Positions 11,234 to 17,184 of a stretch of 52,665 nucleotides of DNA are shown here, one piece after another. This stretch comes from an uncultured Chloroflexia bacterium (GTDB lineage: Bacteria; Chloroflexota; Anaerolineae; B4-G1; SLSP01): positions 1 through 52,665 of the forward strand of contig CAVVUS010000004.1 in assembly GCA_963751345.1 (NCBI GenBank), written 5' to 3'. The notes below the pieces were generated by a model, which ran no database searches, was not told the origin of the DNA, and was given only the letters and a program-made list of their open reading frames with translations. Each line of letters opens with the position of its first letter. Position 1 is the first letter of the stretch. A program made the translations under genes and the position numbers.

Positions 11234-12778
11234 GTGGAGAGATCTATTGATCACAGTGCAGCTGCACTTGACGAACTCCTGCAGCGGGCCATCGCTACAG
11301 CCAAGGATGGACAATTTCCACAGGCACAGTCCCTGTTGCAGCAGGTTCTGACACGCGATCCCGACAACCTGACAGCATGGCTCTGGCTGAGCGGCGTGGT
11401 CTCCAACCCCCTCAAACGAGAGGCCTGCCTGCGTAAAGCTCTGAAACTGGCCCCAGGGCACGAGGCCGCTCGCCGCGGCCTGATGGTCGCCCAGCGAGAA
11501 GCCGCCGCATATATCATGCCACAAGCCATCGCCGCAGCCCAAGCCGGCGAAACCGACCGTGCACGCAAACTACTGACAGATGTCGTCGTTCGCGACGAAA
11601 CCAACGTAGCGGCATGGCTGTGGCTCAGCCGCGTCGTTGAAATACCAGAAGAGCGGGAAATCTGCTTCCAAAACATCCTGATGCTCGATTCCGAGAACCA
11701 GGAGGCGCGCGCCGGCCTCGACTTGTTGGAGAGAGCCGGCGACGAATCCGAGCAGGATCATGGAGCGTCGACGACGAGGAACGAGGAGAGCGTGCCCGTT
11801 GCTTCGACGCTGGCCGGCGACATCCTCGGCGATGCGTATCGCGAGAAACACACTCACGCGATCCCAAGGGCCGAACCACCGTCCGAGCCGGCCTCGGTCG
11901 CAATCTGGGCGAAGTACGACGATCCTTATCTGTGTCCGGTCTGCGCCGGTCCGGCCCGCGCCGAGGATCAGCGATGTCCCAAGTGCCGGGCCAAGCTGTG
12001 GACACGCGCCCGGGCACGAGACCAGCGCTCGCAGCTTCTCTGGATCCTCATCCTGCTGCAGGTGTGGAACACCCTGATCGTTTCCGGGGCACCCTTCCTG
12101 GCGCTGTTTGTGGTCAGCATGCGCATACATACGAACGACACACTGCAACTGCTGGCCGCATATCTCGGCCGGCCGTCCAGCCTCAGCGCAGCTACCGTAA
12201 ACACGGCCATGGGAATGCTCTCGCGTACCGAGTTCTATCTGCTGGGGCTGCCCTTTGTCCTCAGCGTCGCCGGCACGATTGCGCTCTATCTGCGCTGGCC
12301 GCCTGTCTTTTACCTGCTGCTGGCAAGCAGTGTACTGGGACTCGCCGGATCGATTGGGGGGATCGCTTTCCTGGGACAGCAGCCGCTTGCTTTGGCAGCC
12401 GGAGCCCTTGGCATCGTGGTCGCCGTAGGTACCTTTATACTGGCCATCAGGCTCGAGGATGACTTTCGCATCCAACGCAGGCGGCGGCTGCTGGCCCTCG
12501 ATCCGGGGCTTCGGTCCGGAGTGGACTACCTCGTGCGCGGACGTCACTACGCACGCGCGGGGATATGGGGCCTGGCTGCTCTGCACTTTCGCCGCGCTGC
12601 TGCCCTGATGCCTAACGTGATCGACGGACTCCTGGGCGTCGCCCAGGCCGGCGGGCATCTGAACGACCTGGAACTCTCCCGCTGGGCCTTGGAGTCGGCA
12701 CTGGAACGCCAGCCCGGCGACAAACGGATCAAGGAAGCTGTTGAGTTCCTGAAAAGTGAGAGGAGACCCGCCGCCTGA
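11234..12778 (+). CDS. TPR-repeat, Zn-ribbon, multi-TM membrane protein
   Basis: Two copies of DxxNxxAWLWLSxVV, a CPVC...CPKC motif, about five TM helices, and C-terminal TPR-like helices. Confidence 0.8.
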   Translation: MERSIDHSAAALDELLQRAIATAKDGQFPQAQSLLQQVLTRDPDNLTAWLWLSGVVSNPLKREACLRKALKLAPGHEAARRGLMVAQREAAAYIMPQAIAAAQAGETDRARKLLTDVVVRDETNVAAWLWLSRVVEIPEEREICFQNILMLDSENQEARAGLDLLERAGDESEQDHGASTTRNEESVPVASTLAGDILGDAYREKHTHAIPRAEPPSEPASVAIWAKYDDPYLCPVCAGPARAEDQRCPKCRAKLWTRARARDQRSQLLWILILLQVWNTLIVSGAPFLALFVVSMRIHTNDTLQLLAAYLGRPSSLSAATVNTAMGMLSRTEFYLLGLPFVLSVAGTIALYLRWPPVFYLLLASSVLGLAGSIGGIAFLGQQPLALAAGALGIVVAVGTFILAIRLEDDFRIQRRRRLLALDPGLRSGVDYLVRGRHYARAGIWGLAALHFRRAAALMPNVIDGLLGVAQAGGHLNDLELSRWALESALERQPGDKRIKEAVEFLKSERRPAA

Positions 12779-12861
12779 TATTCTTCGCCGCCGCAATCAG
12801 CCAGCCACGGGCGTCGATCGCCTCTGCCCGGCACCTCGCCGACACTGCGTTCCGACCCAAC

Positions 12862-12889
12862 AAAAAAGCCCCCGCCGTAGCGGGGGCTT
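12862..12889 (-). terminator. Rho-independent terminator of hppA
   Basis: Minus strand reads AAGCCCCCGC-TACG-GCGGGGGCTT followed by a T run, 30 nt after the hppA stop. Confidence 0.9.
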
Positions 12890-12919: not shown

Positions 12920-14989
12920 CTAGAAGACATGGAACGATGCGATGATGGGCGCGAAGAGCGAAGAAACAAGGGACATCACGGTGATCAACGTGTTGAGCGA
13001 GGGGCCGGCGGTGTCCTTGAACGGATCGCCTACCGTATCACCCACCACGCCGGCCTTGTGTGCCTCAGAGCCCTTGCCGCCGAAGTGACCACTCTCGATG
13101 TACTTCTTGGCGTTGTCCCACAGACCACCGGCGTTGGCCATCAGCAGCGCGAAGAGGATACCGGTGAAGATCGCGCCACCGAGGAAGCCGCCCAGTGCCT
13201 CGGGGCCCATGATGAAGCCCACGATTAGTGGGAGGGCCACGGCCAGGAAAGCGGGCAGGACCAGGGATGACAGCGCATTCTCCGAGGCCAGAGAGACACA
13301 GGTCACATAATCAGGCTCCTCGGTCCCCAGGAGAATGCCAGGGCGCTCGCGGAACTGCCTGCGGATCTCCTCGATCATATCGAAGGCATTGTGGGTCACG
13401 GACAGCATCGTCAGCGCGCTGAAGAGCGGCGGCGTTACTGCCCCCAGGAAGACGCCTGCGATTACCACCGGGTTCAGAAGGCTGATGACTAGAGGTTGCG
13501 CCGCAGCAGACATCCCCTCCATCGCCTTGAAGATCTCACTGGCGTAGGCAGAGAACAGCGCGAGCACGGTCAGCGCAGCGGCGCTGATAGCGAAGCCCTT
13601 TGTGATGGCCTTGGCCGTGTTGCCGGCGGCATCCAGGATATCGGTGACTTCGACGACCTCCTCGGACATACCGGCCATCTCGGCGATACCACGTGCGTTG
13701 TCAACGATGGGCCCGTATGCGTCAGACGAGACGATCATGCCGCTGATGGCAAGCATCCCGACGGCACTGATGCCGACGCCATAGACGCCAGTAATCACGC
13801 CGGAGGCATCCGCGACGAAGTACGCGATCAGGGTCGCTGCCACGATCCCGATAACGGAAGGGACCGTGCTGATCAAACCGTAGCTAAAACCGGTGATGAT
13901 GGTGATCGCCGCGCCGGAGCCGGAGACCTTGGCAGTCTCCACCACAGGCGGCCGATCGTCGCCGGTGAAGAAGTCGGACGTGAAACCGATGATCACGCCG
14001 GTGATCAGACCGGCCAGCGTCGCCCACAGTGCAGCAAGAGTGATATGGCCCACGAGGACCACGACGGCGACCATCGCAGCGAAAATAATGGTTGTGTAGA
14101 TTGTGCCGCCGTTGAGGGCCGCTCCGGGCTTACCGCCCTCACCCACCTTCACAAACTGCAGGCCGATGAGGGAAGCGAACGAGCCCAACATACAAAGAAT
14201 CAGCGGGAAGATCGTGTAGAGCGTAAGCTGATCTCCCGAAAGATTCGGCATCGCCGCACCCAGTAGCATTGCCGCAACAGAACTTGCGACGTAACTGTCG
14301 AAGATGTCGGCGCCCATACCTGCGACATCGCCGACATTATCACCCACATTGTCGGCCACGACGGCCGGGTTGCGGGGATCGTCCTCAGGAATCCCGACCT
14401 CGACTTTGCCGACCAGGTCGGCAGCGATGTCGGCGGTCTTTGTGTAGATACCGCCCCCGGCCTTGGCCAACAGCGCCAACGTCGAGGCGCCGAAGCTGAA
14501 GCCCAACACCAGCTCAGGTGTCTTGGTGATCAGGTAGATAGTGCTCATGCCCATCAGAGCCAGGCCCACCATCGCCAGACCCATCACCGAACCGGCGTTA
14601 AAGCTCACGGTAAACGCTGGGTTCAAGCCGTGCTCAGCCGCCACTGCGGTTCGCACGTTGCCCTTTACCGCAACGCTCATTCCCATGTAGCCGGCGGCCG
14701 CTGAACAGAGACCCCCGAAGATAAAAGTGACCGCGACCCCTAGACCGTAGGCGGGGGTACGTTGAATCCCAAATACGATAGCCAGTACGATAGCCAGCAC
14801 CACTGCCAGCATCGTCAGGGCAGTGTACAGCTTCTTGAGGTACGACTCTGCGCCGTCCTCAATCCAACCGGCAACGCGCTGTGCGCGCTCGCTGCCGGCA
14901 TCCTGCCGCACGACCCATCGATAATACACGAAGGCCACGCCAACAGAAAGAAGCCCTGCAAAGAAACTGATGAGTACCCAGATGTTCAT
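12920..14989 (-). CDS. hppA: Membrane-bound proton-translocating pyrophosphatase, K+-independent signature
   Basis: GGIYTKTADIAADLVGKVE, EDDPRNP..ADNVGDNVGD and GDTVGDPFKDTAGP motifs. Lys in GNTAKAITKG is the K+-independent signature. GGAGG RBS before ATG14989. Confidence 0.96.
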   Translation of the reverse strand: MNIWVLISFFAGLLSVGVAFVYYRWVVRQDAGSERAQRVAGWIEDGAESYLKKLYTALTMLAVVLAIVLAIVFGIQRTPAYGLGVAVTFIFGGLCSAAAGYMGMSVAVKGNVRTAVAAEHGLNPAFTVSFNAGSVMGLAMVGLALMGMSTIYLITKTPELVLGFSFGASTLALLAKAGGGIYTKTADIAADLVGKVEVGIPEDDPRNPAVVADNVGDNVGDVAGMGADIFDSYVASSVAAMLLGAAMPNLSGDQLTLYTIFPLILCMLGSFASLIGLQFVKVGEGGKPGAALNGGTIYTTIIFAAMVAVVVLVGHITLAALWATLAGLITGVIIGFTSDFFTGDDRPPVVETAKVSGSGAAITIITGFSYGLISTVPSVIGIVAATLIAYFVADASGVITGVYGVGISAVGMLAISGMIVSSDAYGPIVDNARGIAEMAGMSEEVVEVTDILDAAGNTAKAITKGFAISAAALTVLALFSAYASEIFKAMEGMSAAAQPLVISLLNPVVIAGVFLGAVTPPLFSALTMLSVTHNAFDMIEEIRRQFRERPGILLGTEEPDYVTCVSLASENALSSLVLPAFLAVALPLIVGFIMGPEALGGFLGGAIFTGILFALLMANAGGLWDNAKKYIESGHFGGKGSEAHKAGVVGDTVGDPFKDTAGPSLNTLITVMSLVSSLFAPIIASFHVF

Positions 14990-15039
14990 GTCTCCTCCAA
15001 ATCCTCCTACAAGATCGGTATGCGAATTTCCACACAAAT

Positions 15040-15126
15040 AGGCTGCAGCTCCCTCCCCGGACGTTGGCGAAGGGCATAACTTTCTACTCCCCCCGCGTAT
15101 TTCACCGGAGAAGAAGCTGCGAGCCT
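15040..15126 (-). promoter_or_regulatory. Candidate structured cis-regulatory RNA in the hppA leader
   Basis: 16-bp stem GCAGCUUCUUCUCCGG / CCGGGGAGGGAGCUGC with G-U pairs, extended by AGGCU/AGCCU. It encloses an internal loop (UGAAAUAC / CAACGU) and an 8-bp inner stem GCGGGGGG / CCCUUCGC. Confidence 0.55.
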
Positions 15127-15208
15127 TTGGTGGTCGAACTGATGGTGACCCAGATGCCCGATGTGGCCGAACATCAGATGGGTACCGCTGCTGGAAAACT
15201 TCGAACAA

Positions 15209-15983
15209 CTACATATTCGCTGAACGCCACCAGCGATAGTACTTACTTCGTAGCACATCTTGAGAAGGTAAAGGGAAACACCGCATCTGGTCCGCATTCC
15301 CCACAAAGAGCCCGGTCTTCAACAGGCGATAGGGGAAGGTCGCGGGGCTGACCCGATCGACCATCTTGGTATTCACAAGCTTCGTCCGAAGATCGACCAG
15401 GCACTGCCGGAGATGATCGATGTTCGCGTATGGGAGGTCCCCAACGCTGCCGTATTCCGGATTATCTCCCAACTCTCCGAGCCGCAGCTCCGCAAAACAG
15501 ACCGACGGCAATGTATATCAGCGTTGAAGGACTCCGAACGATCAGATTGTAGAACTCGCGCGGTCCGAAGGTGCTGACGACCAAAGGATGGACCGGTGCG
15601 ATCTCCTGATAGAGATGCAGGCCATCAGTATCGGCCGGACACGTTTCCGCCGCATCGAGGCCCAACACCCTGCCATCCTGAGTCACAAGATAGAGTCTCA
15701 GAATCGCGTCCAGCGGAACTCTTTCCAGCGCACGATAGACCGTGATATAGAGCGATCGCTTCGGCGTTCCGTCCTCGTGAGGCACACACCGTTGAAGCCC
15801 CTCTTCAATGGGAAGGCCTTCGACCCGAAAGTCGGGAGCCAACTCGAAGAAAATGGCTTGGCCCCGCGATTTCTTCTCCGTCCCGAGAGCGTAATAGACG
15901 CCAAACTCCTCGGGCGACAACTGTGAAGCGATCAGGGCCTCCGGGATCATCGACAGGTACAGGTGTTTGGTATAGTCAGCCAT
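15209..15983 (-). CDS. Hypothetical protein upstream of hppA (frameshift near 15512)
   Basis: AGGAGG RBS. ORFs 15462..15983 and 15209..15511 join into one protein of about 258 aa ending YYRWWRSANM. Confidence 0.75.
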
Positions 15984-16248
15984 GGTCTAACCCTCCTAAG
16001 GTTGGATGCTAGAAAACGGCTAGATTATCGCTCACCACAGTGCCGAACCCTGTAGTAGGGCCAGGCTGCAACTTCGTCCCTCAAAACCATTATACCACAG
16101 TTAGATTCGGGCTAGTGCTGCCCTACGATATCTGGGAATGTGCAGTCCTCTGCAAGCACCCTGGCACAAGCCAGGGAACCCTTTATAATGCAGCGTTGGT
16201 CCTAATGACGCCTCGGGGCCAGTATATCACGGTTCCATAAGGACACGA

Positions 16249-17184
16249 ATGACAGACGCATCCGCGGGCGAAATGCCACGCACAAGCGCCGTTTCGGAAG
16301 GACGGAGACCGACCGTCCCTCCGGCGTTGGGGTTGGTGGTGGGAGTGTTGGCAGTCTCCACAGCCTCGACCTTTATCCGGCTGGCGCAGACTTCCGTGTC
16401 TTCCCTGGCATTGGCTGCCTGGCGGCTCACCTTTGCGTCGGCCCTGCTTGCCCCCTTTGCCTTTGCCACCGCCCGATCTGAGTGGCGGAAGCTCAGCGGC
16501 GCCGACTGGGCGCTCCTGGCAGCCTCGGGGGCTGCGCTCGCCGTCCATTTCTATACGTGGATCTCGTCGCTGGCGATGACCTCCGTCGCGGCCTCCGTCG
16601 TTTTGGTCAGCACGAATCCCCTGTTCGTCGCGTTGATCTCACACTTCCTTCTTGGGCAACGCGTGCGATCACGCGTGTTCGTAGGGATCCTTGTCGCCGT
16701 CCTGGGATCGGCGATTATCGGGCTTGGGGACATCACAGGGGGAACGCACCAGTTGCTCGGCGACCTTCTCGCGGTCCTCGGAGCCGCTGCCGTGGCGATC
16801 TATATGCTGATCGGTCGGCAGCAGCGGTCGCACTTGTCCCTCCTGGGTTACATCTTCCCGGTCTATGGCTTCGCAGCGGTCGTTCTGATGGCCTTTGCGC
16901 TCGTGACGCGAGCTCCACTCGTCGGGTACCCGCCTCAAGCGTGGGTTTGGCTGCTGCTCATAGCCCTGATCCCACAGATCATCGGCCACTCCTCCTTTAA
17001 TTGGGCGCTGGGTCACTTGCCGCCGACCTATGTGTCGTTGGTCGTGCTTGCTGAGCCTATCGGCTCGACCATTCTCGCCTGGTTAGTGCTCCGTGAGCCG
17101 CCAACGCTATCGACTATCCTCGGTGGCGGCGTGATCCTTGGCGGCATTGTGTTGGCGACGGTGAGAGTCAAGAATGGGGAATGA
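16249..17184 (+). CDS. EamA/DMT-family transporter
   Basis: About ten TM helices, duplicated EamA pattern, STNPLFV and LAEPIGS motifs. Confidence 0.92.
   Translation: MTDASAGEMPRTSAVSEGRRPTVPPALGLVVGVLAVSTASTFIRLAQTSVSSLALAAWRLTFASALLAPFAFATARSEWRKLSGADWALLAASGAALAVHFYTWISSLAMTSVAASVVLVSTNPLFVALISHFLLGQRVRSRVFVGILVAVLGSAIIGLGDITGGTHQLLGDLLAVLGAAAVAIYMLIGRQQRSHLSLLGYIFPVYGFAAVVLMAFALVTRAPLVGYPPQAWVWLLLIALIPQIIGHSSFNWALGHLPPTYVSLVVLAEPIGSTILAWLVLREPPTLSTILGGGVILGGIVLATVRVKNGE

Follow-up and report, generated by a model that had tools for sequence, protein, structure and literature searches.

A conserved, gene-specific hairpin RNA element in the spacer ahead of the membrane pyrophosphatase gene hppA in one family of Anaerolineae

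Membrane pyrophosphatases hold a central place in the energy economy of fermenters living close to thermodynamic limits. Outside a few model species, to our knowledge, next to nothing has been established about their control in bacteria. The described RNA elements with which the leader of such a gene can be compared are of several kinds. The rplL-rpoB attenuator of Escherichia coli is said to be an example of a constitutive intercistronic attenuator; the E. coli pnp leader reportedly forms an RNase III hairpin, and cggR-gapA of Bacillus subtilis reportedly has a processing site with a stabilizing stem-loop. Ion-sensing riboswitches of the Na+-I (DUF1646 motif) and Li+ (nhaA-I) classes control ion-pump genes. 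In Caulobacter crescentus the small RNA (sRNA) SisA controls hppA post-transcriptionally, according to the part of that report consulted (PMC12559287). Here we analyze a 52,665-nucleotide (nt) stretch of DNA from an uncultured Chloroflexia bacterium of the class Anaerolineae (assembly GCA_963751345.1, contig CAVVUS010000004.1, positions 1 to 52,665), which we call the window. The spacer between a gene that we term X and the membrane pyrophosphatase gene hppA contains a long hairpin, H2. It is a real, conserved and gene-specific cis RNA element, a new lineage-specific motif of a known kind that is absent from Rfam.

The stop codon of gene X (15211-15209) and the hppA start codon (ATG at 14989-14987, minus strand) leave a gap of 219 nt, and H2 begins 76 nt after the stop. 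The features of this region are:

12920-14989, minus strand: hppA, membrane pyrophosphatase of 689 amino acids (Pfam H_PPase, E 5.2e-232)
14994-15007, minus strand: two GGAGG sites resembling Shine-Dalgarno (SD) sequences, at 15007-15003 and 14998-14994 (from the sequence and alignment A5)
15008-15029, minus strand: linker from H2 to the first GGAGG, free in sequence and constrained in length (pairing prediction from 18 sequences, spacing at 29 loci)
15030-15133, minus strand: H2, a long rod-like hairpin of 40 pairs, 7 of them G-U (folds, pair list and covariance model R1)
15030-15045, minus strand: 3' base and U-rich tail of H2, (G)CAGCC-U-A-UUUGUGUGG, conserved (alignment A3, columns 146-161)
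15061-15104, minus strand: apex of H2, an asymmetric internal loop plus an 8-pair inner stem, unconserved (leader comparisons)
15121-15133, minus strand: 5' base of H2, CCAC-CAAA-GGCUC, A-tract and GC clamp, conserved (alignment A3)
15143-15185, minus strand: H1, a hairpin shortly past the stop of gene X, conserved in place and not in sequence (fold and leader comparison)
15209-15986, minus strand: gene X, conserved hypothetical protein, split over two frames in the window

The whole leader folded to -98.4 kcal/mol on the minus strand (z -5.23) and to -69.0 kcal/mol on the plus strand (z -1.09). H2 alone reached -60.2 kcal/mol (z -6.74), a value that 0 of 200 shuffles equaled, compared with -40.9 kcal/mol (z -2.89) for its reverse complement. 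These results indicate that the structure of the leader exceeds chance and belongs to the mRNA strand. An earlier sequence-only reading of the locus had argued for the mRNA strand from the wobble pairs, and rightly: H2 has many U-G pairs with the U on the 5' arm, which would be C-A mismatches on the opposite strand. That reading had also described a minus-strand outer stem of ~21 bp with G-U pairs, an asymmetric loop and an 8-bp inner stem, all of which are present in the gap. The outer stem comprises 21 pairs (15126-15105 with 15040-15060), with a bulged C at 15121; the internal loop places UGAAAUAC (15104-15097) opposite CAACGU (15066-15061); and the inner stem comprises 8 pairs (15096-15089 with 15067-15074). 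Below the outer stem, 7 more pairs join CCAC-CAA to UUG-U-GUGG. H2 is predicted as a single very stable rod, with identical minimum free energy (MFE) and centroid structures. GAGCC is followed by UAUUUGUG, and the first 8 bases of the tail hold 5 U. A second hairpin had been placed at about 15145-15185, where we found H1 (without a U tail in the window), and the two SD-like sites claimed ahead of the ATG are the GGAGG pair listed above. H2 is noncoding, because no frame stays open through it across 28 leaders. A 762-amino-acid frame that runs from a TTG at 15208 through H2 was considered as a leader peptide or N-terminal extension and rejected as an accident of the strain group.

To describe H2 across genomes we aligned 27 sequences from five genera (alignment A3); they come from related metagenome-assembled genomes (MAGs), and the counts given here and below are not independent observations. 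When the leader was compared by BLAST with 40 relatives, only the last ~70 nt before the ATG matched, except in the near-identical genome G002. A hairpin stands at the same place in every member of genus g1 and in several other genera, and only its base and the part that follows on the 3' side are conserved. The consensus of the 5' base is (A/G)-C-C-A-C-(C/G)-A-A-A-G-G-C-U-C and that of the 3' base and tail is G-A-G-C-C-U-N-U-U-U-G-U-G-U-G-G. G18, G19 and T21 are invariant, C20 is found in all 25 sequences with a letter at that column, and A12, C13 and C22 are nearly invariant; in the tail, U/T occupies columns 151, 153, 154, 157 and 159 in 26 of the 27 sequences and column 155 in all 27, and G160 is invariant. 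The second position of the tail is A in 13 sequences, C in 11, G in 2 and U in 1.

Without exception, the stem above the clamp is rich in C and U on its 5' arm and in G and A on its 3' arm, and the upper stem and apex (the stretch between columns 22 and 146) range from 28 to 118 nt in the 27 sequences. Predicted stems contain 21-58 pairs, with the minimum of 21 in G017, and the extracted segments with their flanks measure 67-157 nt, plus one of 233 nt in G080. In G017 and G008 the apex has gone, and H2 consists of 21-22 pairs closed by a tetraloop. Among leaders that are 88-98% identical the internal loop reads UGAAAUAC, UGAAUCAU or UGGAUCAC opposite CAACGU, CGGCUU or UGGCUU, while stem changes in the same leaders are transitions that retain pairing through G-U; loop letters differ among the G000 and G002 copies. 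The conserved nucleotides of H2 are therefore paired positions of the base together with the tail, and not loops or junctions.

Pairing in the base helix (25 specified pairs) was well supported: 89.0% of 656 cells held standard pairs, compared with 35.5-55.2% when the partner was slid by 1-3 columns. Covariation, whose absence the sequence-only reading had named as a reason to abandon the element, was evident in 11 of the 25 pairs, which had changed on both sides. Neither the paired share nor the covariation score was reached in any of 500 column shuffles, controls that overstate significance for kin sequences and that bear on a structure derived from the same sequences. Given no structure, RNAalifold predicted 16 of the 25 pairs, including the lower CAC/GUG stem, 4 of them with compensatory changes; this pairing of CAC with GUG beyond the U-tract occurs in 26 of 27 sequences.

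Between H2 and the ATG, 0 conserved pairs were predicted in 18 sequences. Four columns at the first SD site are invariant in alignment A5, and the second site varies (mostly GGAGG, but also GGAGA, AGGAG and GAGAA). Across 29 loci the end of the H2 tail lies 36-46 nt from the ATG (with the g26 start corrected), the stop of gene X lies 32-152 nt from H2, and the motif-to-motif span of H2 is 54-144 nt. H1, which stands 10-40 nt upstream of H2, retains its shape but not its sequence; in genus g26 it forms a GC stem, after which comes a tail such as CCUUUUAUC or CCCUUAAUC. In RNA-library contigs from close strains, over 14785-15125, the leader differed from the window at 2/148 and 2/151 positions and the adjoining hppA coding sequence at 10/151 and 12/151, indicating that among close strains the leader is more conserved than the start of hppA.

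To map the distribution of H2, we built covariance model R1 on alignment A3. In its own genome R1 gave a single match (15027-15140, E 7.6e-17), and a BLAST search with the whole leader returned only itself, the next best hit having an E value of 0.3. Within the order, 34 of 145 genomes were positive, all in family f1 (33 of 70 genomes besides that of the window). By genus the positives were g1 18/21, g26 10/12, g25 3/3, g17 1/1 and g22 1/8. No match appeared in the two other families of the order (0/48 and 0/26 genomes) or in a class-wide sample of 150 other genomes. One copy per genome was the rule in 33 of the 34 positives, with three in G002. Dispersal as a repeat unrelated to gene function, which the sequence-only reading had listed as an outcome that would count against it, is therefore not what is seen, and a dispersed repeat or miniature inverted-repeat transposable element (MITE) is ruled out by the single copy per genome and its constant place before hppA. 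With filters off, R1 applied to 38 loci added G074 (28 bits), G080 (27 bits) and a non-significant G056 (12.5 bits, E 0.56), and it found nothing in 15 loci of the second family (f2) or in the single f3 locus. By eye only, hairpins of the same design were seen in G041 (g15), G056 (g30) and G023 (g3), and no H2-like hairpin was seen in g16, g21, g27, g29, g18, g23, g24 or g4.

A scan of public genomes for the tail pattern returned 119 loci, 8 of which adjoin hppA; the six with listed titles are all named 'Anaerolineae bacterium'. The other 111 were set aside as chance matches, as expected for 16 specified bases. Within the genome of the window, TNTTTRTGTG occurs 19 times, compared with ~22 expected from base composition (an estimate). 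Strong perfect GC hairpins precede 3 of the 19 sites, but a lenient hairpin test is also passed by 254 of 1500 random positions, so that no enrichment results.

Several loci depart from the common arrangement. Short tandem repeats, with units such as AACCAGC or CUUUUGAC, replace H2 between X and hppA in leaders from g21, g22, g27 and g29 (L165, L168, L203-L205, L216 and L217). The three X-H2-hppA copies of G002 lie on three contigs. In two of these copies and in one public contig, an ATT stands in place of the hppA ATG behind the double GGAGG (L009:1726, L019:1726 and L119), and the L009 copy has an in-frame stop at codon 152. Possible explanations are that the start is non-canonical, that these are paralogues in decay, or that one bin mixes several strains.

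These comparisons bear directly on the proposal of the sequence-only reading that the leader is a cation-, pH- or pyrophosphate (PPi)-responsive element, possibly of a new class. One part of it stands: this is an hppA-specific RNA element, with covariation, mRNA-strand action, a single copy and a constant place in several genera. The sensing of a ligand does not, and H2 is probably a structural cis element that senses none. A riboswitch for a cation, pH or PPi, made up of H2 with or without H1, would suit an ion-pump gene with a gene-specific, covariation-supported element acting on the RNA strand, and the terminator-like base could serve as its expression platform. Nevertheless, the hallmarks of a riboswitch are missing, which makes this reading very improbable. 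No Rfam model reached its gathering score anywhere in the window, and at E ≤ 10 over 14900-15350 the only hit was the Caulobacter sRNA CC0734, at chance level (18.1 bits where gathering requires 45, E 1.2). No unpaired nucleotides are conserved in the loops or junctions of H2; the internal loop changes even between nearly identical strains, and G017 and G008 lack the apex, so that the lack of loop conservation that the sequence-only reading had itself counted as adverse is what we observed. Nor is there a conserved alternative, mutually exclusive pairing: H2 is a single rod, a reading of the leaders revealed no conserved complement upstream to its 5' base, H1 has no conserved sequence, and the SD sites are not sequestered.

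Two related mechanisms were tried and rejected. Sequestration of the SD sites, as in a thermometer, finds no conserved linker or SD pairing, and the pairing of the first SD site with 15193-15205 in the MFE structure of the window is absent from other species. An antiterminator formed by the Trp-Trp codons of X (UGGUGG) with CCACCA fits g1 and not g26, where the 5' base is CACGA. A literature search on hppA riboswitches or stem-loops, and on candidate structured or cis-regulatory RNAs of Anaerolineae, found no description of H2; PMC5737381 and PMC2864571, in the parts consulted and supplements aside, do not mention pyrophosphatase or hppA.

Around the R1 matches, X lies upstream in 30 of 30 loci and hppA downstream in 29 of 30, the remaining one being a contig end. 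Outside f1, gene X occurs in 32 of 41 f2 genomes and 1 of 26 f3 genomes, and hppA follows it in all 16 of the loci fetched (15 from f2 and 1 from f3), one of them at a distance of ~1 kb. Counting all loci checked, X is directly upstream of hppA in 45 of 46, the other being a contig edge. The other spacers in f2 and f3 are short (down to 13 nt in L226), and some hold unrelated hairpins and some none. Because X and hppA adjoin in f2 and f3 without H2, the pair looks like an old operon to whose spacer H1 and H2 were added later in family f1, and this gene order makes it probable that X and the membrane pyrophosphatase gene belong to one operon.

Protein X belongs to no Pfam or NCBIfam family and has no usable protein-atlas match. 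It has 2925 homologues at E ≤ 0.001 (the best 120 are 71-99% identical), which reduce to 351 representatives at 50% identity, and its identity across three families of Anaerolineae is 66-79%. An AlphaFold model based on a 51-sequence alignment scored pLDDT 95.0 and pTM 0.91. Foldseek found no match for this model in the PDB at E ≤ 0.001, and in a VIA search of 48,161 chains the best Z was only 3.7. Very conserved and, by its model, well folded, this partner of hppA has neither a known fold nor a known function. In relatives the gene is intact and encodes 254-257 amino acids (for example L146:550-1323). In the window it is divided into frames 15462-15986 and 15209-15517 with a break near 15515, and in an RNA-library contig (run X1) a single base is missing at 15515. 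The gene may therefore not be dead, and the frameshift may instead come from an assembly error or from strain variation.

Contigs from RNA libraries bear on whether X, H2 and hppA share a transcript. They are assembled contigs of depth 2-12, possibly with DNA, from runs chosen by words from this stretch, and the six candidate runs share few words with it (0.00-0.19). Four libraries from three studies yielded contigs at 14964-15111, 14975-15125, 14842-15024, 14995-15119, 15006-15164 and 15195-15441. They link the hppA start to H2 and, in one run, nearly link H2 to gene X, a weak hint of read-through.

HppA, the product of the downstream gene, carries GNTAKAITKG, in which the Lys is presumably the mark of K+ independence. 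Among solved structures its best relative is 8b37, 'K(+)-insensitive pyrophosphate-energized proton pump' (E 4.8e-142), in agreement with the K+-independent H+-PPase signature noted by the sequence-only reading. The NCBIfam label 'sodium-translocating pyrophosphatase' does not discriminate, being common to all 12 matching NF0019xx (PRK00733) models. Downstream, hppA ends in a terminator that we used as the in-genome standard for comparison:

12852-12889, minus strand: canonical intrinsic terminator of hppA, AAGCCCCCG-CUAC-GGCGGGGGCUU followed by UUUUGUUGGG

It lies 31 nt past the hppA stop, in the spacer facing a convergent TPR-repeat gene (11234-12778, plus strand), and has a 9-pair GC stem with a tetraloop, then UUUUGUUGGG.

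We tentatively favor, at a probability of about 0.4, the view that H2 is a leaky hairpin of the intrinsic-terminator type, an attenuator in the X-hppA spacer. H2 would then be a constitutive cis-acting hairpin in the spacer of a two-gene unit, X followed by hppA, with the two genes co-transcribed. Its build is that of a terminator, with an A-tract (CAAA) and a GC clamp (GGCUC...GAGCC) around a freely evolving upper stem, then a U-rich tail, U-N-UUUGUGUGG. RNA polymerase arriving from gene X would stop in part at this tail; the non-U at the second tail position would keep the stop incomplete, so that a set fraction of transcripts continues into hppA; and these read-through transcripts would be translated from an unstructured leader with two GGAGG sites.

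Several observations are consistent with this mechanism. H2 lies downstream of a gene on the same strand, CAAA precedes GGCUC, and a GC-rich stem is directly followed by a U-rich tract. For comparison we performed a strict scan of the genome (63% G+C) for terminators, requiring a perfect, GC-rich stem of at least 9 bp, a loop of 3-8 and at least 5 T in 8, which returned 31 hairpins. These, like the terminator that follows hppA in the window, have A-enriched 5' flanks and tails (among them TTTTTTGTGTC and TTCTGTTGTGG) of the same kind as that of H2, although the tract of H2 is weaker than theirs. At the second tail position the 31 terminators have T in 90% and A in 0%, whereas H2 has a non-U in 26 of 27 sequences, a contrast that fits selected leakiness. 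Homologous hairpins of sister genera end in a plainer U-tract (G041 GAGCCUUUUUGAUGGG, G074 GAGAGCCUCUUUUAUGGG, G081 GAGCCUCUUUUAUGG), and that of G074, ~115 nt away from the ATG, is placed as ordinary terminators at gene ends are. Lastly, neither a promoter scan (no minus-strand site in 14800-16300) nor leaders read by eye revealed a sigma-70-like promoter in the stretch from H2 to the ATG.

Other features of H2 weigh against an attenuator. Its stems of 21-58 pairs are far longer than those of the terminators in the genome and exceed the compact form of ~5-15 pairs with a small loop, and a simple terminator scan did not list it. H1 keeps only its shape, which indicates selection for structure alone, but in the base and tail of H2 the letters themselves persist from genus to genus, so they appear to be read by something. 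The tail-to-ATG distance is held at 36-46 nt, although termination does not call for any set spacing from the ribosome-binding site that follows, and the CAC/GUG pairing past the U-tract (26 of 27 sequences) matters only on RNAs that have been read through. An attenuator would also hold hppA mRNA at or below the level of X mRNA, an odd outcome for a pump gene with two strong SD sites. To this must be added that low-depth assembled RNA contigs cannot show 3' ends, and that the related MAGs compared do not supply independent counts.

Fixed spacing, conserved letters, stem length and SD strength favor RNA processing as the main rival to attenuation. H2 would in that case be a processing or stability hairpin, either a substrate of RNase III or a protective 5' stem-loop left after an endonuclease cut in the H1-H2 linker; it would uncouple the fate of hppA mRNA from that of X and give the hppA message a 5' end that is protected, well defined and set at a constant spacing from the ribosome-binding site. 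Every H2 has at least 21 predicted pairs, some two helical turns or more (40 in the window), and the conserved base could mark a cleavage site. The fixed 36-46 nt and the unstructured, free linker suit a hairpin just outside the ribosome footprint, and the two strong SD sites suggest an hppA level at or above that of X, which processing allows and attenuation does not. RNase III is encoded (TIGR02191, 194.2 bits against a cut-off of 166.25, on G000:C30). The match, at G000:C30:155195-155852 (minus), consists of two pieces that overlap on the genome and cover model positions 39-216 and 2-45; the split could be a frameshift or an assembly error. We consider processing somewhat less likely than attenuation, and the best placed of the rivals. 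It leaves unexplained the U-rich 3' flank and 5' A-tract found in all genera and the plain UUUUU tails of sister genera, and RNase III has little sequence specificity. The contigs show no ends, so cleavage products could not have been seen in them.

Two further readings account for the conserved letters in other ways, and both are improbable. In one, H2 is a full terminator of X, and hppA has a promoter of its own that overlaps the conserved tail and linker, so that DNA promoter geometry constrains the tail-to-ATG distance. AT-rich genera do have a hexamer resembling TATATT, TATACT or TATTCT, 1-4 nt upstream of the first GGAGG, and G074 has 115 nt after its canonical version of the hairpin. 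By our own count, however, the spacers from TTGTGT to these hexamers are 12-15 nt, and g1 has no -10-like hexamer; a promoter between H2 and the SD sites was accordingly rejected, with spacers too short and none in g1. The scan described above also lists no site, RNA-library contigs from three studies bridge H2 and the hppA coding start, and the G-U pairs and strand asymmetry point to RNA rather than DNA. In the other reading, the base and tail of H2 bind a trans factor (a protein, perhaps X; an sRNA; or Hfq) that sets hppA by energy or PPi status. The sequence conservation exceeds what pairing needs, unlike in H1; X is always adjacent, very conserved and of no known family, with no solved-fold match despite a confident model; and in Caulobacter hppA is a post-transcriptional target of SisA, as given in the part of PMC12559287 consulted. 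Against this, X and hppA adjoin in a second family without H2, which shows that X can do without the hairpin; the X model gives no sign of RNA binding (best Z 3.7), and no candidate sRNA is known. A specific form of this idea, a long shot in our estimate, makes the invariant CAC..AAAGGCUC / GAGCCUNUUUGUGUG at its fixed distance the operator of a dedicated trans factor, with protein X the prime candidate. X-H2-hppA would then be an autoregulatory module that matches synthesis of the PPi-driven proton pump to energy or PPi status, and H2, instead of a passive hairpin, would be the RNA half of a new protein-RNA regulatory pair.

What the analysis defines is a lineage-specific cis RNA, supported by covariation, before hppA in a conserved two-gene unit with an uncharacterized partner. 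If H2 tunes the X:HppA ratio, whether through leaky termination or through processing, the locus would be a clean natural example of operon-internal tuning in Chloroflexota, and protein X offers a concrete handle for studying the regulation or assembly of the pump. H2 is not evidence for a new class of ligand-sensing riboswitch, and its wider importance is therefore modest.

Set beside the known systems, H2 resembles the Na+-I (DUF1646) and nhaA-I riboswitches in being a structured 5' region of an ion-pump gene, but unlike them it matches nothing in Rfam, and neither its loop or junction nucleotides nor any alternative structure is conserved. With SisA, to the extent covered by the consulted part of PMC12559287, it would share the post-transcriptional setting of hppA at the 5' region, whereas SisA acts in trans by base pairing in an alphaproteobacterium and has no homologous sequence. 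The pnp leader and cggR-gapA share with H2 a long, near-perfect double-stranded stem upstream of an accessible ribosome-binding site within an operon transcript; the conserved A-tract and U-tail of H2 are not features of those systems, and cleavage of H2 is hypothetical. Intrinsic terminators and intercistronic attenuators differ from H2 in stem length (~9-13 pairs rather than 21-58) and in the U-tract, which H2 breaks at position 2 in 26 of 27 sequences, and H2 adds to their design a base and tail conserved in sequence across genera and a fixed distance to the next start codon. With them it shares an A-tract, a GC-clamped stem, a U-rich tail and a place between co-directional genes of one apparent unit.

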